Shown piece after piece: positions 26,640 through 63,986 of a DNA stretch of 64,000 bases (positions within the stretch are counted from its first letter, which is position 1; the number at the start of each line of letters is the position of its first letter). Both the position numbers and the translations under genes were made by a program. The notes beneath the pieces are model-generated. The model saw only the letters and a list, made by a program, of their open reading frames with translations. It searched no databases and was not told the DNA's origin. Origin of the DNA: Candidatus Gottesmanbacteria bacterium GW2011_GWA2_43_14. GTDB taxonomy: Bacteria; Patescibacteriota; Microgenomatia; 2-02-FULL-39-11. The DNA is taken from positions 205,680-269,679 of the forward strand of contig LCFP01000001.1 of assembly GCA_000999095.1 (NCBI GenBank), in the 5' to 3' direction.

Positions 26640-27866
26640 CTATTGCAAGTGCCAGTAGAGGGTCATTTTGCCGTTTTCATGGAAGATAAAAACACCGTTG
26701 CCTGCCGATTGTCCGCCGCGGTATACGTATTTATTGCCGCCTTCAACAGACTTGATTAAAGTGTTTTTGTCGTCATACATATCGACTCCGTTGTGGATGC
26801 CGGACTGGTAACGCCAGGACCAGGGAGTATGGCCGTAACACTGGGAAATTGACGGACTATCCATCGGCCAGTCCCAGGACCCGGAGCCGATCGACTTTGA
26901 GGTTCTCTGGTCGGGCGAGACGTCGTCGCAGGCGGTTGCCTCGAAGCCCAACTCCCTGGATTTCAACAGGTTAAACGGATTCTCATAACCGCTGTTGAAA
27001 TTGAACTTATTCAAATCAGCTTCGTTCAGGTTGTATACAGCAAAATGCAGATGGGCACCGGTAGAAAACCCTGTGTTCCCCATGATGCCGATGACATCGC
27101 CTTTATTGATTTTGGTTGGTACCCCGGCCTGGGACAGAAGTGATGCAGCGCGCTGGATGCCTTCGGCTTCCCTCCTGGCCGCATCAAGTTCCTGGCGGTA
27201 GCGGGACTCGCTGCTTCTGGTAGTCTCCAAAAACAGCTCTTTTTCTTTTTTCTGCACCGCCAGGGTATTTTGTTCTTTTTCCAGCTGTTTTTTTGCCTGG
27301 TCAAGCTCCACTTTTTTATCTTCACGCTGCTGTTTCTGGTCTTTAAAATTTTCCTTGCTGTTCTGGAGCTGAAACAGCAGTTTTCTGTCATGCGCCTGGA
27401 CTTTCTGCATGTATTTGAAGCGGTTGACGAAATCGGAAAAACCGTTGGAAGAAAGAACCATAGTCAGATAGGATTTTTCCCCCAGCCTGTAGGTAGCGGC
27501 AATCCGGTCCAAAAGGACCTGGGAAATTTTTGTCAAAGAAGATTCCAGGCTGTCGATTTTTTCGGAAATCGTATCAATATCTTTTTCAATTTGCGCAATC
27601 TTACCCCTGGTAGCATCAATTTTCGCCGTAGTCAGCTGAATTGAAGTCGTCAGGTAAACAATTTGAGCTGCCATGTTCTGCCTTTGGGCGGAACAGACAT
27701 TGACGATGTCAGTATAACAGCTGACGCGTTCATTGGCCTCTGATTTATCTTTGCAGGGATCGTCGTTCGGACAGACAGACAATCCGTACACGCTCAAAGG
27801 AGTTAAAACCAGGTATATAAATACGACCGATAAGATCCTGAAAAGTTGAGTGGTTATTCTGGACAT
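26640..27866 (-). CDS. EnvC-like cell-division murein hydrolase / activator: signal-anchor, about 200-aa coiled coil, circularly permuted M23 (LytM) domain with intact metal ligands
   Basis: Heptad-rich KIAQIEKDIDTISEKIDSLESSLTK...QELDAARREAEGIQRA. Then KGDVIGIMGNTGFSTGAHLHFAVY (canonical C-terminal M23 block with HxH). Then WDWPM...QCYGH...HNGVDMYDD...GKMTLYWHLQ-stop (canonical N-terminal block with HxxxD and the YxHL histidine). It lies immediately downstream of ftsX. Confidence 0.75.
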   Translation of the reverse strand: MSRITTQLFRILSVVFIYLVLTPLSVYGLSVCPNDDPCKDKSEANERVSCYTDIVNVCSAQRQNMAAQIVYLTTSIQLTTAKIDATRGKIAQIEKDIDTISEKIDSLESSLTKISQVLLDRIAATYRLGEKSYLTMVLSSNGFSDFVNRFKYMQKVQAHDRKLLFQLQNSKENFKDQKQQREDKKVELDQAKKQLEKEQNTLAVQKKEKELFLETTRSSESRYRQELDAARREAEGIQRAASLLSQAGVPTKINKGDVIGIMGNTGFSTGAHLHFAVYNLNEADLNKFNFNSGYENPFNLLKSRELGFEATACDDVSPDQRTSKSIGSGSWDWPMDSPSISQCYGHTPWSWRYQSGIHNGVDMYDDKNTLIKSVEGGNKYVYRGGQSAGNGVFIFHENGKMTLYWHLQ

Positions 27867-27873
27867 CTTTAGG

Positions 27874-28782
27874 TTAATCGTTAAGATACCTGCTTGATGC
27901 AAACAGGCTGCCGACAAAACCTATACCCAATCCGCAAGCAACAAGCAGCAGATAGAGAAGCAGGAACAAAGTCAGGTTTAAAGGCCAGATCAACAAAGTG
28001 AAACTGCCGGCAGATACAAGTTTTAAACTGCCGACACCTTTGAGAAATGAATCGGCATAAGGCTCAAGATAAAGCATCAGGAAAAAACTGATGACAAAAG
28101 CCATGGTGGCGCCTGCCAAACCGTAAAGTAGACCTTCTTTGATAAAAGGTTTTTTTATATACCAGTTGGTAGCACCGACCAGTCTGAGAATTTCGATTTC
28201 TTCCTTTTTATTGGCAATTTTCATGCTGACGGAAGTCAGCAGTATGAAAAAAGTCGACAGGATGAGAAAAAATACAAAAATAAAACCTACTTTACGGACG
28301 GTAGATGCCCAAACAATTAAGGTATCCACTACTTCCTTCTGAAAGACGACGTCCTCCACTCCTGGTTCCGAACGCACTGACTGGTATATCTCATCCAAAT
28401 ACTTTGGAGAAGTGGCTGAAACATCCAGTGAAGCAGGCAGGATGTCGGCTGTCACCATTTCCAAAAGCAAAGGGTCATCCTTGTTCTGCTCACGGTAAAT
28501 AGCCAGTGCTTCTTCCTTGGAAACGTACTTCGTGGAAAGGACTTTATCCGTGCTTTTAAGCTTTTCCGCAAATTTATCTATCGATGCCTTATCCTTGTCG
28601 TTGGAGAAAAAAACGGTTAATTGGGGCTTGGATTCGAAATAACCGACCAAAGCACTTGACGATGCAACCAGGAGCAGGAACAAACCCAACACAAACAGGG
28701 TGATGAACATCATAAACAACGAAGCCACAGTCTGATACGGCGTCCTTCTTAATCTCTGCCAAACCGAAATGGTCGAATACAT
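27874..28782 (-). CDS. ftsX: cell division permease-like protein FtsX
   Basis: Four TM segments, large extracellular loop after TM1. IEILRLVGATNWYIKKPFIKEG conserved FtsX block. Directly downstream of ftsE. Confidence 0.8.
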   Translation of the reverse strand: MYSTISVWQRLRRTPYQTVASLFMMFITLFVLGLFLLLVASSSALVGYFESKPQLTVFFSNDKDKASIDKFAEKLKSTDKVLSTKYVSKEEALAIYREQNKDDPLLLEMVTADILPASLDVSATSPKYLDEIYQSVRSEPGVEDVVFQKEVVDTLIVWASTVRKVGFIFVFFLILSTFFILLTSVSMKIANKKEEIEILRLVGATNWYIKKPFIKEGLLYGLAGATMAFVISFFLMLYLEPYADSFLKGVGSLKLVSAGSFTLLIWPLNLTLFLLLYLLLVACGLGIGFVGSLFASSRYLND

Positions 28783-28784
28783 AC

Positions 28785-29459
28785 TTATGAATACTTGCTT
28801 TTTTTCTGGTCCCTGATTATTTTGCCTTTGCTTATTTCGATCACTCTTTTTTTCATGCTGTTGACTATATCAACGTTATGGGATGCCATTATGACCGTTT
28901 TGCCCTGTTTGTTTATCTCAGTGATTATTTTAAGTATATCCCAGGATGTTTTCGGGTCCAGGTTGCCCGTCGGTTCATCAGCCAGGAGGATTTCCGTTTC
29001 GCCGGCGACTGCCCGGCCGATGGCTACTCTCTGCTGTTCACCCAGGGATAATTGTTTGGGGAAAAAATTGGCCTTTTCGGTCAAAAGTACTATATTCAGC
29101 ACTTCCCTGATTCTCTTGTCGATGTCGGCGGACTGCCTGTCCAAAATTTCCAGGGAAACGGCAACATTTTCTGCCACAGTACGGTCATTTAATAATTTAA
29201 AATCCTGGAAAACGAAACCGACTTTACGTCTGAGAAAGGGTACTCTTGATTTGGGTAACTTATTTACTTCCAGGTCGCTGACAAAGACAGAGCCTGATGA
29301 AGGCAGTAATTCCCGGTCAATCAGGCGGAGAATTGTGGTTTTGCCTGCTCCCGAGGAACCGACCAGGAAAACAAACTCCCCCTTGTCGATTTTGAAATTG
29401 ATATCCTCGACAGCAGTAGATTTACCGTATCTTTTGCTGACATTATCAAATAGGATCAT
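28785..29459 (-). CDS. ftsE: cell division ATP-binding protein FtsE
   Basis: Walker A GSSGAGKTT, ABC signature LSLGEQQRVAIGRA, Walker B ILLADEPTGNLD. 224 aa. Confidence 0.9.
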   Translation of the reverse strand: MILFDNVSKRYGKSTAVEDINFKIDKGEFVFLVGSSGAGKTTILRLIDRELLPSSGSVFVSDLEVNKLPKSRVPFLRRKVGFVFQDFKLLNDRTVAENVAVSLEILDRQSADIDKRIREVLNIVLLTEKANFFPKQLSLGEQQRVAIGRAVAGETEILLADEPTGNLDPKTSWDILKIITEINKQGKTVIMASHNVDIVNSMKKRVIEISKGKIIRDQKKSKYS

Positions 29460-30974: not shown

Positions 30975-32267
30975 CTAGAAAAGATAACTGACCCAATCGG
31001 CCAATTGGCCATCTGTCACAGCCTCCATTTTAGTTTCGATCCTCCCCCATTCTTCACTGTTGCGGCCCGGAGGCATAGGTAAATATATCAATTCATTCCC
31101 AGCCAGTTTTTCCCAGGCATAATCGCGGCGGGCTTTTTTATATTTTTTGCCCTGATATTTGTAGACGGCAAATTCATTCTCAATTTTAAGATTGTTTATT
31201 AAATCGCGATTCCGCAGACTCAATTGGGTGCCCATAATTGCTTCATCACCCGGGGGCGGTAATGGTAAATCAAGACCGGAAAATTCGGCAAAATGGTAAG
31301 CCAAAAGCGGAATACGGCCTACAGCTCTTTCCAGATAACTGTAAAAGGAAGACGAAGCCGTCAAACGGGGATTGATTTCCGACAAACTCACTTTGCCTGA
31401 ATTTTTTTCTACAAAAAAATCCAATCCGAAAAATCCCCGGAAACCCAACTTACTGATTATTTTAGCTGTTGTTTCTGAAATTTCTTTAATTGCTTTAATT
31501 TGTTCCTCCGTAAGCTGTGATGCCGGCCATTGCCGGCCGCAGGTGGCAGCAGGGTTGGACGACAACAGGGCAAAACCATTTATCTGTATCGCCGGCGGCC
31601 CAATCAATAACCGGCCTCGGTAAAGGCAACAGTTGTTTAAAAAAGTTAAGGCATCAATTTTCCTGGTAATTCTGACTTTGGTTTCGGGAAAACGGTTTTT
31701 AAGCTTATTGAATTGCGCCCCTGTGTCAATAAAAAAAGTATTTTTGCCTGCCCATCCGAAGGCGAATTGAACCGTCAAAGGCAATCCGAACTTAGCTTCC
31801 AAGCGGGCGAAATTAAACTCCGACAGGCTGCCTGTTTCGGAATCCAGCAAATATTGCTCAAACCCGGCCAAAAGGACCGGCAGGTTAAGTTTGCTTTCCA
31901 ATTCCCTGTTTAATTCCGCTACGGTTCCGATTATCCCGTAGCCTTTTTTCCGGATTATCATTTCGGTTTTTAATGAAGGCTTAAAAAAAGCAATCTGCGG
32001 CTTATTGCCGCCTTTTTCAGCCAGGTAACGGGCAACCTGCGGATGGTCCAAGAGCCGGCCGGAATTATTCGGAAGTATCGCTTCCCCAGTCTCCTCCCCA
32101 AGGCAAAAAATCCGGACTCCTTTTTTTCTCAAAACCGGAATTAGCTCATCACGGAAGCTGACAATCAAATGATACTGCGGCAGCAGGTCTTCCAGACCCA
32201 AACCTCTTTTGATATCGGGCGTGACAAAAAAAATCGGCTTGTTAAATTTTTGCTGCCATTTATCCAT
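30975..32267 (-). CDS. ATP-grasp superfamily ligase, unknown substrate
   Basis: The C-terminal half carries ATP-grasp blocks: [36 protein letters not shown] (E-x-N-x-R). The N-terminal 200 aa match no domain I recognise. Confidence 0.55.
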
Positions 32268-33129
32268 AATGCTTTCCGGTTAAAATTACCACAGTTCTGC
32301 CCAGACGGAACCCTGAGACCTGTGCTTTCTTTACGGCTGCATAAGCGGCAGCTCCCTCAAAAGATGTCTCAAAACCCAGCCTGTCCAGTTCAGTTTTGGC
32401 TTCTTCCATCTGTAGGTTTTGAATTACCCAGCCGCTTCCTGACGAATCGCGGATGATATGAAGGAGTTCTTTTTCCCTGGGCAGACTGCGTGCCACAATA
32501 CCTTCGGCCAGACTTTCCGTTTCCGGTGTAAAGTCGTGGTCAAAATGAGCCGCCAAAGGATTTATCCTGGAAGTCTGCACTGCATGGAAACGGGGCAACC
32601 GGCCGCTTTTTTTGAAGCCGTCATAAATACCTTTCATGGCCGTACCGCTCGAGACGGGCAGAAAAATATCATCGGGAATTCCCGCACTTTCAGTCAGCTC
32701 AAAACTGACAGTTTCGAATCCAACGGGTGCTTCGGTATCGGTAGACTGCCGCAGGTTATGGGCTTTATCCCAGAGTGCGGTTTGAAAGGCGGAACTTACA
32801 GGCCGTGGGGTGATAACAACTTCAGCCTGTTTTTTTAGGATATCAAGCTTGGTTATGTTTATTTTGGGTGAAACAAAAACCGTCAGGTCAATTCCGGCCA
32901 ATCTGCAGTAAGCTGCAGCTGAGATACCGGCATTACCCGAGCTTGAAATGACCGCTTTTTTTATTTTTCTTTCAAAAAGTCTGGAAATCTGGAAACATAA
33001 ACCCCGGTCTTTTATTGAACCGGTAGGATTTTCGTATTCGCATTTGAAAAACAAACCGTTTTTCTCCGCAAGCGGAGTATCACCTTCATTAAGGCTTAAC
33101 CTGTACTCTTCAGGCACACGGGGCAGCAT
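32260..33129 (-). CDS. PLP-dependent enzyme, fold type II (threonine synthase / cysteine synthase / TrpB family)
   Basis: NPTGSIKDRG (PLP-lysine motif) and ISSSGNAG (glycine-rich phosphate-binding motif). 8-bp overlap with the ATP-grasp gene suggests an operon. Confidence 0.7.
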   Translation of the reverse strand: MLPRVPEEYRLSLNEGDTPLAEKNGLFFKCEYENPTGSIKDRGLCFQISRLFERKIKKAVISSSGNAGISAAAYCRLAGIDLTVFVSPKINITKLDILKKQAEVVITPRPVSSAFQTALWDKAHNLRQSTDTEAPVGFETVSFELTESAGIPDDIFLPVSSGTAMKGIYDGFKKSGRLPRFHAVQTSRINPLAAHFDHDFTPETESLAEGIVARSLPREKELLHIIRDSSGSGWVIQNLQMEEAKTELDRLGFETSFEGAAAYAAVKKAQVSGFRLGRTVVILTGKHYG

Positions 33130-33199
33130 CGCGGCATATTTCCAAAGTCCTGAATCAACTTGTTTACCCTTTGTATCTATGGTTTAATTATATCTTTAG

Positions 33200-33376
33200 A
33201 TGGGTCCTTCTCAAAATCAGATTGCCAAATTTGTCTGTCCGGAATGCAATAATCCCCTTGTAAAAGACAGGGAGATAAAAATCGGAATACTTCTGGAATG
33301 TCCCTCCTGCGGAACTGAAATCGAAGTTGTCTCGGTCAATCCCCTGAAACTCGCCCCCCTGGAAGAAGAGAAGTAA
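33200..33376 (+). CDS. LysW-like zinc-ribbon amino-group carrier protein homolog (58 aa). Unannotated because it is below the 60-aa cutoff.
   Basis: MGPSQNQIAKFVCPECNNPLVKDREIKIGILLECPSCGTEIEVVSVNPLKLAPLEEEK. Two CPxCG knuckles about 20 residues apart, then EIEVVS.NPL.L.P and an acidic tail. This is the LysW/ArgW architecture as I recall it, but the terminal EDWGE is replaced by EEEK. Confidence 0.55.
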   Translation: MGPSQNQIAKFVCPECNNPLVKDREIKIGILLECPSCGTEIEVVSVNPLKLAPLEEEK

Positions 33377-34624
33377 CGATTTTCCTCAGTGATATTTTCC
33401 CTTTGACGAACAGGCTGTAGAAATTGGCAGCAGCCGGTGAAACAAGCAAAGTTCCGTCGGGCGGTAAAGATTTTAAACCGCAAACGACTGCCTTCTCCAG
33501 ATTTTCAGCACGGGTTATGTCATCAGGAGCATTTCCTGCCATTTCGCTCGGAAGAAGAATAATTTTTATCCCTGATTTGTGCTTTTAATGTCATCGATAA
33601 TTTTTACACCGTTTACGGAACCTATTTCTTCTACCCTGGCGGTTAAGCCTTGAGACTTGACGATAGCTTTAAAGATGGTGTTGTCGGTTATACCGTAAAT
33701 TTTTGCTGTGGTCGATGCAGCCAATACATTTTCAGGATAATGGACACTTTTTATATTCAATATTTGGTCATAAATTTTACGGATACTTTCCGTATTCATA
33801 TTTCTATCTTTTAGGCTGTAATAAAACCTTTTTGACATTAAACCTTCTGTTTGACGCCTTAATTCATCATTGTCATAATTGATGACACTATTGCCTTCTT
33901 TTCCCTGCCGGCGGACCAGGGTTAATTTCAATTTCAGGTAAGACTCCCAGTCCAGCTCATCCAGATGGTTGGGGAAAAGATTGGTGACCACAACTGTTGC
34001 CGGCGGACGGCTAAAACCGTCTGCCAGCTGGCGGTGTGACACTTCCAAAACCAGAAAATCATCGGGTTTCATCCGCTTCAACTTGTCCACCGGCTGAACC
34101 TTCCAGGTTTCATTCCCGGCAAAAAATGAATTTCTGCCGCTTTCCCTGAAAATTTCAGTCAATAAAGAGGCGGTTGAACCCTTGCCCACTGTTCCTGTGA
34201 CCGCCACAACCTGGGCCTTCGCGAAATCCAGATATATCCTGGTCAGCGAATAAAACGGGATTTTTCCCTTTAAATCAAAAAGCGGCCGGTTTTGGCTATA
34301 TAACTTCCAGGATTGGGAGACAAAAATTATATCGGCCTTTTCAATGTCTTTTAGATAGTCCCTGCCGTCATAAAAGCGTACTTTGCCCAAATTTTGACTG
34401 AAGCGGCGGAAGAGTTTCTGCCGTATGTCCGTATCGATACCCTTATGCCAGATTTTAAAGTTTTTTTCCAGTTTATCATCTGAAATAAAATCATGAGCGG
34501 TAATATTCTTTGCTCCAAAATCGCTTAAGAGGTTTAAAATGCCGGAGCCTTCACTGCCGGTCACGCCCACTATATGGATATTTGATTTTCCGATTCTTTT
34601 GAGAAAGTCACCGAGTTTTTCCAT
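33336..34624 (-). CDS. murD: Mur-ligase family protein, MurD-like, interrupted by an apparent 1-nt frameshift in a GGG/AAAAA tract near 33545-33570 (two ORFs: 33566..34624 and 33336..33542)
   Basis: N-terminal Rossmann motif IHIVGVTGSEGSG. VTGTVGKGST (Mur ligase P-loop). IDDIKSTNQG (MurD NDSKATN) then a stop. The shifted frame continues GIKIILLPSEMAGNAPDDI...DGTLLVSPAAANFYSLF, which corresponds to the MurD C-terminal D.VLLSPACASFDQF block. The fused length of about 429 aa is typical for MurD. Confidence 0.6.
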
Positions 34625-60934: not shown

Positions 60935-61687
60935 TTGATGCTGTTTAATATTGTTCTTTTTACCATCCTGGGCAGCATTTTCTCCCTGATCGGAGGCCTT
61001 ATTCTTCTCACCAGGAAACAGCTTTCCGATAAAGTAATCCTGATATTGACCAGTTTCGCCGCAGGAGTACTTCTCTCGACCGCCTTTTTTGACCTCTTTC
61101 CCGAAAGTCTAGAGTCAGGTACTGAACCGACCACTGTGTTTACGGCTGCCCTGACCGGCATAATTCTTTTTTTTATTTTTGAAAGATTTTTTCTGTGGTA
61201 CCACCATCACCACGGATCGCACAAAGGCGTGCATCCCTCAACCATCCTGATCTCTGTCGGGGACGGCATCCACAATTTCATTGACGGTGTGGCTATCGCC
61301 GGAGCTTTTCTGGTCAGCTGGCCATTGGGTGTTATCACTTCAATCGCCGTGGCCGCCCATGAAATACCCCAGGAAATTGCCGATTTTTCCATCATGCTTT
61401 CGGAAAAAGTCGAACGCCGGAAAATTGTTTTTTTCAATCTGGCTTCTGCCGGTACTTCCCTTGTCGGAGCTGTCGGAACATATTTTCTGGCTGAGACTGT
61501 CACTATATATCTTCCTATCATCATCGCTTTCACTGCCGGCATGTTTACCTATATTGCCTCCTCCGACCTCATTCCCGAGTTGCACCGTTCGGGCGAAGGC
61601 AAGGAAGAAGCCTGGCAGCAACTGACCGTCTTTCTGATTGGCATCATCCTGATATTTGTCGTAAAATCGCTCCTGCATGAAGGCTGA
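60935..61687 (+). CDS. ZIP-family divalent metal transporter (ZupT-like)
   Basis: His-rich loop WYHHHHGSHKGVH. VAAHEIPQEIADFSIM (HNxPEG-like motif). 8 TM helices. Confidence 0.8.
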   Translation: MMLFNIVLFTILGSIFSLIGGLILLTRKQLSDKVILILTSFAAGVLLSTAFFDLFPESLESGTEPTTVFTAALTGIILFFIFERFFLWYHHHHGSHKGVHPSTILISVGDGIHNFIDGVAIAGAFLVSWPLGVITSIAVAAHEIPQEIADFSIMLSEKVERRKIVFFNLASAGTSLVGAVGTYFLAETVTIYLPIIIAFTAGMFTYIASSDLIPELHRSGEGKEEAWQQLTVFLIGIILIFVVKSLLHEG

Positions 61688-63071
61688 CAGTAATAAAGAC
61701 GCGAACCTTAAGGAATTAAATCAGCTTGCCACAGACAAACTCCGGCAGCTCCGGCATTTTCAGAAAGTCTTTTCCCGCTTCAGCCGGTTTTTATCACCAG
61801 GTGAAAAAAAATTAACAGCCGGAAAAATTAATCAACTGGATGAGAAATTTAGTGATTTTCTAAAATCAGGCTTCCCGGATATATATGTTTTAAGGATGCT
61901 TGTTTCTGATTTTGCTTCGCTTATGATAGCTTCCGATTGGCAATCCCCTTCTTATGATCACTCGTTGATGCCTTCAGCAGGCAGACAAACAGGCAAAATA
62001 TCAGGCACCGTCAATGACTATAAACGGGATGTCCATCTGGATGAAAAGGATTACGAAAAACAATTTATTTCCCAATATATCGATGCCCTAAATAAATTCC
62101 GGCTATCCGCTTTTCTGGTAGCCAGCGGCCAGGCAGCTTTCCAGACGGTACTGACCTATTTGCAATCTGAGGGCAAATTGAACGGCCCGGTTGTTTGCGG
62201 CCGGTCCTCATACTTTCAGTATAAACAGATACTCAAAGGCACTTTCAGGGAAGAATACTTCGAAACGGACGAAACGGACACTTACAAAACGCTCAGTCTT
62301 ATTAAAAAAATCCGGCCCAAAGCAGTTTTTCTTGATTCCCTCTGTAACAGCAGTGAAATTGCCGTGCCTGACCTGAAAAAAATCATCGAAGAAATATACC
62401 GTACGGCGCGGGATGATTTATATCTGGTTATCGACAACACCTGCCTCACTTTCTTCTGCCAGCCATACATGTGGCGCAAAAACAATAAAAAAGTACACCT
62501 GATTACCTTTGAAAGCCTGAACAAATACCACCAGTTCGGCCTGGATCGGGTAACGGCGGGAGTTGTCGTCTGTCACGCTAAAGATGCTGCCGGCATTTAT
62601 GAATACCGCAAACATGCCGGGACCAACATCTCTGATTTTTCCCTGTTTTGTTTACCTACGCCCAACCGCCGGCTTTTGGAAAAGAGGCTTTTGCGACACG
62701 TGAAGAGCGCCTTGTCTTTGACGGCTTCGCTTGTATCTGACGGCGTCAGTGTAATATATCCGGGTTTACCGCAACACCATGGTTATCCAGTTCTCAAAGA
62801 AAAGGGTTTTTTCGGCAGTTTTTTCAACCTTTCTTTTAAAAACAACAGCCCGAAAAAGTTTAAGAATATAATCCGCAAGGCCGTAATTTACGCCAAAAAG
62901 GAAAAAGTGAACCTGACGGCCGGCACCAGCTTCGGCTTCTCGACAACCAGGATTTATCTCACCTCACTCTGGACCAGACACGGCACCCCCTTTTTGAGAA
63001 TCTCCTGCGGAACTGAAAATGAGGAAGAAATCAATAAATTGAAAATTGCCTTCAAAAAATCCCTGCAATAG
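61677..63071 (+). CDS. PLP-dependent enzyme related to the Cys/Met-metabolism (cystathionine gamma-synthase/beta-lyase) family, with about 150-aa N-terminal extension
   Basis: FESLNKYHQFGLDRVTAGVV parallels the S.TKY..GHSD..AG PLP-lysine block. NLTAGTSFGFSTTRIY parallels the SLGG.ESL C-terminal block. Divergent, so function is uncertain. Confidence 0.45.
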   Translation: MKADSNKDANLKELNQLATDKLRQLRHFQKVFSRFSRFLSPGEKKLTAGKINQLDEKFSDFLKSGFPDIYVLRMLVSDFASLMIASDWQSPSYDHSLMPSAGRQTGKISGTVNDYKRDVHLDEKDYEKQFISQYIDALNKFRLSAFLVASGQAAFQTVLTYLQSEGKLNGPVVCGRSSYFQYKQILKGTFREEYFETDETDTYKTLSLIKKIRPKAVFLDSLCNSSEIAVPDLKKIIEEIYRTARDDLYLVIDNTCLTFFCQPYMWRKNNKKVHLITFESLNKYHQFGLDRVTAGVVVCHAKDAAGIYEYRKHAGTNISDFSLFCLPTPNRRLLEKRLLRHVKSALSLTASLVSDGVSVIYPGLPQHHGYPVLKEKGFFGSFFNLSFKNNSPKKFKNIIRKAVIYAKKEKVNLTAGTSFGFSTTRIYLTSLWTRHGTPFLRISCGTENEEEINKLKIAFKKSLQ

Positions 63072-63086
63072 TCTTATACTTAAGTT

Positions 63087-63986
63087 ATGCTGGGGTTTTT
63101 AAACAGGCTTTTCCCTCACAAAATCACTTTCCATACCGTAAGTTTGCCTTTGACTGATCTTCACTACATGAAGTACGGCTCGGGCGAACCTTTAATAATT
63201 TTTCCGGCCACCATCTCCCGGCTTTCCAACTGGACAAACCTGCTGCAGTTCATGGGTGATAAATATACCGCATATTTTTTTGAATTGCCGGGACACGGAT
63301 TCTCAAGCGCTTTCCGGGTCCCCTATAAAAGCGAACTGGTAGCCCGGACCTTTACCGATCTTCTTGATGCTTTGAAGCTTGATACGGCCAATGTCATGGG
63401 ATTTTCCTTCGGAGGAATCCTGACCTTAAAAACGGTTTTAGCCTTCCCGGAAAGAATCCGTTCCCTGATCCTGTATGCACCCTGTATCTCCCACAAAGCC
63501 CTCCGCTATTCACAAAGCAGACTGACTGTTCTTAAGAATTTACTGCCTTTTTTTTCCCAAGCGAAGTTCCAGCAGCTTCTTTTGACCGCTGCCCATAATC
63601 AGCATACCGTCAATAGTCTAATTTCATTTCTCCAGTTTGCCGGCCGGCTGGAAAGAACGATGGAAATAAAAGAAACCCTGCTTCACCTGCCGCCGGAAAC
63701 CCTCTCAACAGTCGTTGTCCAGATCAGTGAAATACTGACTGCGGATTTCGAGGGGGAAGACTTTTCGGCTGCCTCAAATATTCCCCTTTATTTCGCCATG
63801 TCCGTCAACGATCCTTTACTGGATTTTCATTTTACGCGGGATTTCCTGCAAAAAAAGTTTCCCAATTTCAAAGCTACCCGCTTCGACTTCCCGTTCCACC
63901 AACTGCCCAAAGAATACGACTATCCCTATCTGAAAAAAAATATGGGGGAACTGCTTCGGACTCTTAATCTGGGAATGTCAGGTTAA
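63087..63986 (+). CDS. alpha/beta-fold hydrolase
   Basis: GFSFGG nucleophile elbow (GxSxG) and typical length. Confidence 0.6.
   Translation: MLGFLNRLFPHKITFHTVSLPLTDLHYMKYGSGEPLIIFPATISRLSNWTNLLQFMGDKYTAYFFELPGHGFSSAFRVPYKSELVARTFTDLLDALKLDTANVMGFSFGGILTLKTVLAFPERIRSLILYAPCISHKALRYSQSRLTVLKNLLPFFSQAKFQQLLLTAAHNQHTVNSLISFLQFAGRLERTMEIKETLLHLPPETLSTVVVQISEILTADFEGEDFSAASNIPLYFAMSVNDPLLDFHFTRDFLQKKFPNFKATRFDFPFHQLPKEYDYPYLKKNMGELLRTLNLGMSG

Follow-up and report, generated by a model that had tools for sequence, protein, structure and literature searches.

The closest described counterparts of the system considered here are the LysW/ArgW systems of Thermus, Sulfolobus and Thermococcus, in which the enzymes LysX/ArgX, LysZ, LysY, LysJ and LysK operate together with a small carrier protein, whose acidic C-terminal extension ends in a glutamate (EDWGE), the gamma-carboxylate of this residue being the attachment site. 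To our knowledge, carrier-based biosynthesis of the LysW type has been described for two amino acids, lysine and arginine, in Thermus and archaea, and otherwise only for a few Streptomyces metabolites that depend on an amino-group carrier protein (AmCP). A fold-type II pyridoxal 5'-phosphate (PLP) enzyme that uses the C-terminus of a small protein as a nucleophile is found in the CysM–CysO pair of Mycobacterium, and in SbnA an amine nucleophile attacks the aminoacrylate. In a 64,000-nucleotide stretch of contig LCFP01000001.1 from Candidatus Gottesmanbacteria bacterium GW2011_GWA2_43_14 (hereafter the window) we analyzed a gene module in which a LysW homologue is encoded next to an ATP-grasp enzyme, a fold-type II PLP enzyme and a peptidase of the NlpC/P60 fold. 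The LysW homologue thus has partners that are all different from those of the known systems, and it is fixed in a cell-wall/division gene cluster across a class of uncultivated, genome-reduced bacteria. We propose, tentatively and with a little less than even confidence, that the module is a minimal carrier pathway of the load–modify–release kind and that its product is a building block of peptidoglycan. The members of the module in the window are as follows:

33200..33376, plus strand: carrier gene (LysW homologue, proposed carrier or scaffold); 58 aa, ATG start, TAA stop
33130..33199, no strand: intergenic region from which the carrier gene and the PLP/ATP-grasp operon diverge; 70 nt
32260..33129, minus strand: fold-type II PLP enzyme, ThrC-like but divergent; 289 aa, Pfam PALP (PF00291) 152 bits
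30975..32267, minus strand: ATP-grasp enzyme of the PurK / biotin carboxylase / L-amino-acid-ligase / PGM1 / PylC structural group; 430 aa
34635..35339, minus strand: NlpC/P60-fold cysteine peptidase, predicted cytoplasmic; 228-234 aa, UV73_C0001G0234

The small zinc-ribbon protein and its tail

A preliminary description of this DNA had claimed a 58-codon open reading frame (ORF) at 33200..33376 with a LysW-like layout and an EEEK end, and the ORF is present exactly so: its product (MGPSQNQIAKFVCPECNNPLVKDREIKIGILLECPSCGTEIEVVSVNPLKLAPLEEEK) carries two CPxCG knuckles, the EIEVVSVNPLKL block (EIEVVSxNPLKL) and a terminal LEEEK. The match to a LysW zinc-ribbon profile on which that description depended was recovered with Pfam PF21344 (Zn_ribbon_LysW), at 43.7 bits against a gathering score of 27 (E 2e-11, model positions 3-46 of 46), and the small protein is matched best among solved structures by LysW from Thermococcus kodakarensis and from Thermus thermophilus (5k2m_E, E 7e-7; 3wwl_A, E 9e-7). 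The scores against the LysW equivalog models lie under their cut-offs (35.1 versus 53.2 for TIGR01206 and 25.2 versus 75 for NF041070).

The alignment with Thermus LysW extends from the first knuckle through "PEE" and ends 6 residues short of the Thermus C-terminus, where the canonical EDWGE end is located; the tail of the small protein is therefore shorter, by about 5 residues. A profile search recovered 499 database homologues, and an EEK C-terminus is seen in 118 of the 120 best of these, in agreement with the earlier suggestion of a divergent tail distinct from EDWGE. The consensus of 71 distinct syntenic copies, CPdC..Gdi.EC..CGtE.Ei.s..Pl....l.EEK, shows Cys, Gly and Glu positions that do not vary; in the tail, E(-3) and K(-1) are invariant both in these copies and in alignment A7, in which E(-2) is nearly so. 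The variants EQK and ETK that occur among relatives imply that the side chain at -2 is dispensable, unlike those of E(-3) and K(-1). The conservation of the tail is not a by-product of the convergent overlapping gene, because in locus L008 that neighbor ends before the small gene does. We take the family-invariant C-terminal tail, L-x-E-E-K, to be functionally constrained. The family as a whole is strongly acidic, with a median net charge of -8 over 55 residues and an isoelectric point (pI) of 4.2.

The small gene had been presented as unannotated, which proved incorrect: the protein is identical to GenBank UV73_C0001G0231 (Ca. Gottesmanbacteria bacterium GW2011_GWA2_4x), called as a hypothetical protein, and the gene was therefore missed solely by the 60-aa ORF filter and not by the public record. 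Its pN/pS is about 0.27 (206 pairs, in the part free of gene overlap). Judged from its sequence, the ORF is a genuine gene under selection and a true LysW homologue. The reported 70-nt gap between it and the start of the PLP-enzyme gene is correct, and a short divergent spacing is kept among relatives (about 2-97 nt). A near-consensus sigma-70-like promoter predicted for the minus-strand operon (TTGAGA-16-TATAAT, 33214..33187; 11 of 12 hexamer matches, by consensus match only) extends into the first codons of the small gene, implying that the divergent transcription signals overlap.

A search of 1.84 billion cluster representatives with hidden Markov models (HMMs) yielded 1902 LysW-like ribbons. 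Among the best 150, 39 are of the EEK type and 5 have the canonical ..DWGE end, these two being separate sets; many carry long poly-acidic tails, and about 50 have two ribbons in tandem. The EEK group thus forms a single discrete branch within a larger superfamily that is mostly uncharacterized. The tandem two-ribbon proteins are 115-165 aa long, and the superfamily also includes giants with 8-10 ribbons and single ribbons with long poly-Asp/Glu tails; we know of no described function for any of these forms. The idea that the small protein is the detached N-terminal zinc ribbon of a short ThrC was rejected: there is no match to PRK06450 or PRK08329 at E <= 0.1, and the peptide aligns with LysW over its whole length, which also contradicts this idea.

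Homologues of the small protein carry the name "lysine biosynthesis protein LysW" at NCBI and JGI, and this annotation, together with the Pfam LysW domain match, would favor a bona fide LysW for lysine or arginine biosynthesis. We regard such a role as very unlikely and the label as probably wrong. Scores under both equivalog cut-offs, a tail other than EDWGE and a context of division and cell wall (dcw) genes, detailed below, all speak against it, as does the set of neighboring enzymes. Among ORFs of at least about 150 aa, the window has no AA_kinase, Semialdhyde_dh, Aminotran_3, Peptidase_M20 or RimK family protein, and the earlier statement that it contains no LysZ, LysY, LysJ or LysK therefore stands for ORFs of that length. 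No LysZ/Y/J/K or ArgB/C/D/E-like enzymes occur in the Pfam-annotated related loci, and no LysX/Z/Y/J/K was seen in about 90 related loci, a set in which the ORF searches used only queries for the module and for dcw genes. The small protein is a member of the LysW-like domain superfamily and is best assigned to a distinct LysW subfamily. It departs from LysW/ArgW in four defining respects: it falls short of the equivalog score, its tail does not end in Glu, its partner is not a LysX, and it lies outside any LysZ/Y/J/K context.

The partner enzymes

The identification of the 32260..33129 product as a fold-type II PLP enzyme was upheld, since it has the PALP fold and is ThrC-like. Its PLP lysine lies within NPTGSIKDR, and in the family alignment (A5) NPTGSxKDR is invariant, as are K40, SSGN, K94, R127/S129, S161-G162, Q185 and E258. 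The best NCBIfam matches are to short ThrC models, at less than half their cut-offs (136 versus 301 for PRK06450, 134 versus 358 for PRK08329); TIGR00260 (ThrC) gives 54 against a cut-off of 167, and ThrC chains in the PDB are matched with E values between 1e-10 and 1e-11. The ThrC motif NPxRxEGQK contains an Arg that we take to bind the substrate phosphate; on alignment to 2zsj, HMMER pairs it with an Ala that is not conserved. The protein is a ThrC-like enzyme, yet one that does not attain the curated threonine synthase scores and does not keep the presumed phosphate-binding Arg. An apparent fusion of the PLP and ATP-grasp proteins in locus L051 was rejected as an artefact of masked N bases.

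The genes for the PLP and ATP-grasp enzymes overlap, as had been noted, and the overlap of 8 nt suggests translational coupling. The profile of the ATP-grasp family has solely marginal matches to PDB sequences (E >= 5e-4), confined to the Mg/ATP motif, and the class of the enzyme was assigned by structure comparison from an AlphaFold2 model. The figures obtained were 24.5 for PurK, 24.4 for both the biotin carboxylase domain of acetyl-CoA carboxylase and the ATP-grasp peptide ligase 8ynd, 23.5 for the L-amino-acid ligase BL00235, 23.3 for PGM1, 22.8 for PylC, 22.2 for BesA, 17-19 for Ddl, 17.0 and 16.0 for LysX and ArgX, respectively, and 15.3 for RimK. Foldseek was concordant: its top matches were PurK and biotin carboxylase, at TM-scores of 0.55-0.65. 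Going by the model, the enzyme is neither a LysX/RimK-type ligase nor a Ddl, and its predicted fold does not discriminate an amide ligase from a carboxylase. Classification as Ddl or another housekeeping ligase, which would have spoken against the preliminary description, was not obtained: the Ddl model score is not reached and all curated models are far under their cut-offs. A lone paralogue of the enzyme (L006 6001..7377, the same as L030; 458 aa, 40% identity) is encoded between radC and a PPDK-like gene, with no adjoining PLP or carrier gene.

Two other chemistries may be considered for this enzyme. With PurK and biotin carboxylase heading the structural comparison, one might envisage chemistry of their type, with a carboxyphosphate by which an amine, possibly the epsilon-amine of the terminal lysine, is carboxylated, and with the small protein serving as a swinging arm like that of the biotin carboxyl carrier protein (BCCP). 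In the test for biotin carboxylase/PurK, PRK06524 scores 116 against a cut-off of 684, and no BCCP or carboxyltransferase was seen in the Pfam-annotated related loci; we hold this chemistry to be distinctly improbable. The presence of both Glu and Lys in the tail, and of an adjoining ATP-grasp gene, might also suggest a cluster for a peptide made on the ribosome and modified after translation (RiPP), of the graspetide type, in which the small protein is the precursor peptide and its Glu and Lys side chains are cross-linked by the ATP-grasp enzyme, a reading to which we give almost no credence.

The P60-like family could be recognized by its fold. Pfam has no match for the window copy, and the family profile finds among PDB sequences solely Spr/MepS, at E 0.3. 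A fold search assigns the family to the papain-like NlpC/P60 fold, with a conserved catalytic triad of Cys, His and His/polar residue. The motifs GIDCSG, GD.IR..G.H and Y.HS are invariant, and the AlphaFold2 model has a pLDDT of 95.1. The protein carries an extra N-terminal domain of about 80 aa, and, as a signal peptide is not evident on inspection, a cytoplasmic location is most likely. NlpC/P60 enzymes canonically act on gamma-glutamyl–diamino-acid bonds, the type of bond that LysK cleaves in LysW-gamma-Lys. The peptidase is a natural candidate for the release step of a carrier pathway.

The combination of an ATP-grasp ligase and a papain-like peptidase acting at an acidic EE-X end is also seen in the tubulin tyrosination cycle, where the ligase is the tubulin-tyrosine ligase (TTL). 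As in that cycle and in the pearlin scaffold peptides, an amino acid would be handled on a C-terminal carboxylate and later removed by a peptidase. In contrast to the module, the ligases of pearlin are tRNA-dependent and LanB-like, and the tubulin cycle serves regulation and includes no PLP step; homology between the module and the pearlin and tubulin enzymes goes no further than the ATP-grasp and papain-like superfamily folds. This parallel raises the alternative of a tail-modification or protein-tagging cycle, in which the ATP-grasp enzyme extends the tail or ligates it to a target, the P60-like peptidase reverses this, and the small protein is a regulated division or cell-wall factor, in the manner of RimK acting on ribosomal protein S6, of TTL on the EE end of tubulin, or of the Pup ligase. 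We judge such a cycle to be unlikely.

Gene order in the division and cell-wall cluster

Searches with the ATP-grasp enzyme gave 198 matches, from Microgenomates. The synteny set was compiled from six gene-neighborhood look-ups and one species-representative genome scan (80 loci), annotated with local HMMs, and counts refer to the 66 loci that have 2.2 kb or more of sequence upstream of the ATP-grasp gene. The order carrier (on the opposite strand), PLP enzyme, ATP-grasp enzyme is found in 64 of these 66 species-level Microgenomates loci, so that conservation of the trio in related genomes, on which the preliminary description had placed weight, was observed. The two exceptions are a lone ATP-grasp paralogue and a locus where the match taken was a second ATP-grasp copy, the trio being at another place in that locus. 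Far from being absent from syntenic relatives, the small ORF with its knuckles is represented there by the 71 distinct copies, and a search begun from the small protein gives the same gene context. The P60-like gene adjoins the carrier gene, or is separated from it by murD alone, in 54 of the 66 loci.

In most lineages the module lies inside the dcw cluster, and in Gottesmanbacteria it lies beside murD. The order in Shapiro-, Woese- and related lineages is rsmH-ftsL-ftsI-murE-(Fem-like ATE_C)-Mur ligase-(murA)-mraY-[P60-like]-[carrier, reverse]-[PLP]-[ATP-grasp]-ftsW-murG-ftsQ-ftsA-ftsZ. This slot corresponds to what we take to be the murD position in the classical cluster order. The order in Gottesmanbacteria, including the window, is GT4-His_Phos-PAP2-[P60-like]-murD-[carrier, reverse]-[PLP]-[ATP-grasp]-(Nramp)-prfB-ftsE-ftsX-M23. 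The embedding of the module in dcw across Microgenomates, and the P60 peptidase as its fourth conserved partner, had been missed in the preliminary description. The module is a vertically inherited unit of three to four genes in Microgenomates (Gottesman-, Shapiro-, Woese- and Roizmanbacteria) that travels with dcw genes.

The genes of the window are almost wholly concerned with the cell envelope. Just downstream of prfB and the module are ftsE, ftsX and a gene for a PcsB-like M23 peptidase (26640..29459, minus strand); therefore the Gottesmanbacteria module is still beside division and cell-wall hydrolase genes, though outside the classical dcw. The conserved upstream neighbor is the following:

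33336..34624, minus strand: murD (UDP-MurNAc-L-Ala:D-Glu ligase), convergent with and overlapping the small gene; TIGR01087 matches both fragments

This gene is split in the window into a 352-aa ORF (33566..34624) and a 68-aa ORF in another frame (33336..33542), and it is without about 60 residues of the C-terminal domain that are found in intact relatives (467-478 aa). The 41-nt overlap of the small ORF with 33336..33542 (minus strand) is as reported; the latter had been read as an extended tail of murD and is instead the second fragment of a disrupted murD, which is either a pseudogene or an assembly error of this metagenome-assembled genome.

The genomic position of the module also bears on an alternative in which the PLP and ATP-grasp enzymes are free-standing enzymes for peptidoglycan precursors, and the zinc ribbon is a non-covalent accessory, scaffold or regulatory subunit. 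Under this alternative, an amino-acid-converting enzyme might act with a dipeptide ligase, resembling Ddl or the L-amino-acid ligases, that takes the place of alr/ddl or provides a residue of the cross-bridge. The dcw position is one normally held by murD or ddl-type genes, and no ddl was seen within about 10 kb on either side in the dcw clusters inspected. The ATP-grasp enzyme resembles ligases of free substrates, such as BL00235, BacD, RizA and Ddl, and carrier-less pairs of fold-II PLP and ATP-grasp enzymes are present in the D-cycloserine, dapdiamide and rhizocticin pathways. The location in or beside dcw, and the pairing of an ATP-grasp with an amino-acid-converting enzyme, are features that the module shares with Ddl and with Aslfm, a D-aspartate ligase that has a racemase partner. 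However, free-standing enzymes leave unexplained why a LysW homologue with an invariant exposed E-E-K should be kept in 64 of 66 loci, and why a cytoplasmic NlpC/P60 peptidase should travel with it; moreover, ThrC-like enzymes are not known as racemases. We rate this alternative as somewhat unlikely.

Two further observations were made on the related loci. A 200-aa gene of the ATE_C/GNAT type (a Fem-like aminoacyl-transferase) lies between two dcw Mur ligase genes in most Shapirobacteria-type loci (e.g. L008 1372..1977 and L089 14554..15159), which suggests a Lys-type peptidoglycan with a tRNA-dependent cross-bridge. Many related metagenome-assembled genomes (L011, L018, L021-L023 and many more) are titled "uncultured Gammaproteobacteria bacterium"; their gene content and best matches are those of Microgenomates, and these record titles look wrong.

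A candidate carrier pathway and its significance

The module shares with the LysW/ArgW and Streptomyces AmCP systems a homologous zinc-ribbon domain, carried by a small and strongly acidic protein whose C-terminal tail is exposed, a co-encoded ATP-grasp and hydrolase-type enzyme, and basic partner enzymes. It differs from LysW/ArgW in the tail, which has E-E-K at its end in place of EDWGE and is shorter by about 5 residues. In the LysW pathway loading is carried out by LysX, whereas the module has an ATP-grasp enzyme like PurK or the L-amino-acid ligases (Lal), of a different structural clade; in place of the modifying enzymes LysZ, LysY and LysJ (kinase, reductase and fold-I aminotransferase) there is a ThrC-like fold-II PLP enzyme; and in place of LysK, an M20 metallopeptidase, there is an NlpC/P60 cysteine peptidase. 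The context of LysW and AmCP is amino-acid or natural-product biosynthesis, and that of the module is the cell-wall/division cluster. The resemblance to CysM–CysO, which is one of analogy only, lies in the combination of a fold-II PLP beta-replacement enzyme with a small carrier whose C-terminus reacts (CysO); unlike CysO, the module's putative carrier is a zinc ribbon rather than a ubiquitin-like ThiS/MoaD fold, there is no thiocarboxylate machinery, and activation would be by the ATP-grasp enzyme. A precedent in cell-wall synthesis is the Fusobacterium lanthionine synthase, a fold-II PLP enzyme that supplies the position-3 diamino acid as a surrogate of diaminopimelate (DAP).

From these comparisons we infer that the system may use amino-group-carrier logic, in which the very acidic zinc-ribbon protein would offer its short invariant L-x-E-E-K tail to basic partner enzymes. 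In the loading step the ATP-grasp enzyme would make an amide bond on the tail, either by placing an amino acid onto the tail carboxylate or by acylating the terminal lysine. The ThrC-like PLP enzyme would then elaborate the tethered residue, likeliest by beta- or gamma-replacement, with the tethered side-chain nucleophile attacking a PLP-bound aminoacrylate or vinylglycine intermediate. Finally, the cytoplasmic NlpC/P60 peptidase would free the product, in the role of LysK. A replacement of this kind would yield a bis-amino-acid of the DAP, lanthionine or lysinoalanine type, and the product would most likely be a non-standard amino acid for the stem peptide or cross-bridge, such as a diamino-dicarboxylic acid. 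By masking one amino group, the carrier would impose the regiochemistry. As a PLP enzyme requires a free amine for the aldimine, the tethered residue is more likely the nucleophile acting on a second, free amino acid. The terminal lysine could be a built-in first substrate or nucleophile, an acyl acceptor as in the PylC reaction, or a recognition element. The partner families are basic, with pI values of 9.2-9.6 against the acidic carrier family, and this charge complementarity is compatible with electrostatic docking as in LysW systems, without being specific evidence for it.

At the far end of the window (61677..63986, plus strand) there is a fold-I PLP enzyme of Cys/Met metabolism (PF01053) followed by an alpha/beta hydrolase, possibly MetX-like. 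These sulfur-amino-acid enzymes belong to a genome that is otherwise poor in biosynthesis and, though 30 kb away, might matter to the module if its product is a thioether diamino acid.

Several points weigh against such a carrier pathway. The covalent loading of the tail is something we infer by analogy, and the tail is without the terminal Glu that is the attachment site of all characterized amino-group carrier proteins; being about 5 residues shorter, it may also have a limited reach into active sites. A substrate blocked at its alpha-amine cannot be the aldimine partner of PLP, so that a second, free amino-acid substrate is needed. The basicity of the partners may just reflect the generally basic proteomes of Microgenomates, and the gene-cluster context for a peptidoglycan role is circumstantial. 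In addition, 10 of the 64 loci that carry the trio have no adjacent P60 gene, and these are mainly loci of a sub-lineage with an I-[IV]-E-E-E-K tail.

In that sub-lineage (L031, L032, L033, L036, L037, L040, L043, L054, L056 and L068) mraY abuts the carrier gene with no adjoining P60-like gene, and the peptidase may be encoded elsewhere or be dispensable.

A more specific form of the carrier proposal, which we consider possible though doubtful, is that a peptidoglycan component is built on the LysW-derived E-E-K carrier by PurK/Lal-like loading, ThrC-like elaboration and P60 release, and that this replaces a canonical precursor-supply step; the product might then be a DAP-surrogate diamino-dicarboxylic acid or a pre-formed branch.

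No description of the module was found in the searchable literature. The database label "lysine biosynthesis protein LysW" is a probable systematic mis-annotation, which the present analysis corrects. The four proteins of the module are small and soluble, and the proposed pathway is thus directly testable in vitro. If it is true, the module would represent the first housekeeping, cell-wall role for amino-group-carrier logic and the first carrier pathway with fold-II PLP chemistry and a P60-type release enzyme. It would be a case of carrier-protein logic with new enzymes in a new cellular context, and confirmation of the link to peptidoglycan and of the fold-II chemistry would bring it close to being a category of its own. 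Should the product be a peptidoglycan building block, the carrier principle would extend to essential envelope synthesis, and the Candidate Phyla Radiation would harbor a previously unknown cell-wall chemistry, which would account for a specialized wall component in organisms that have no standard amino-acid pathways.

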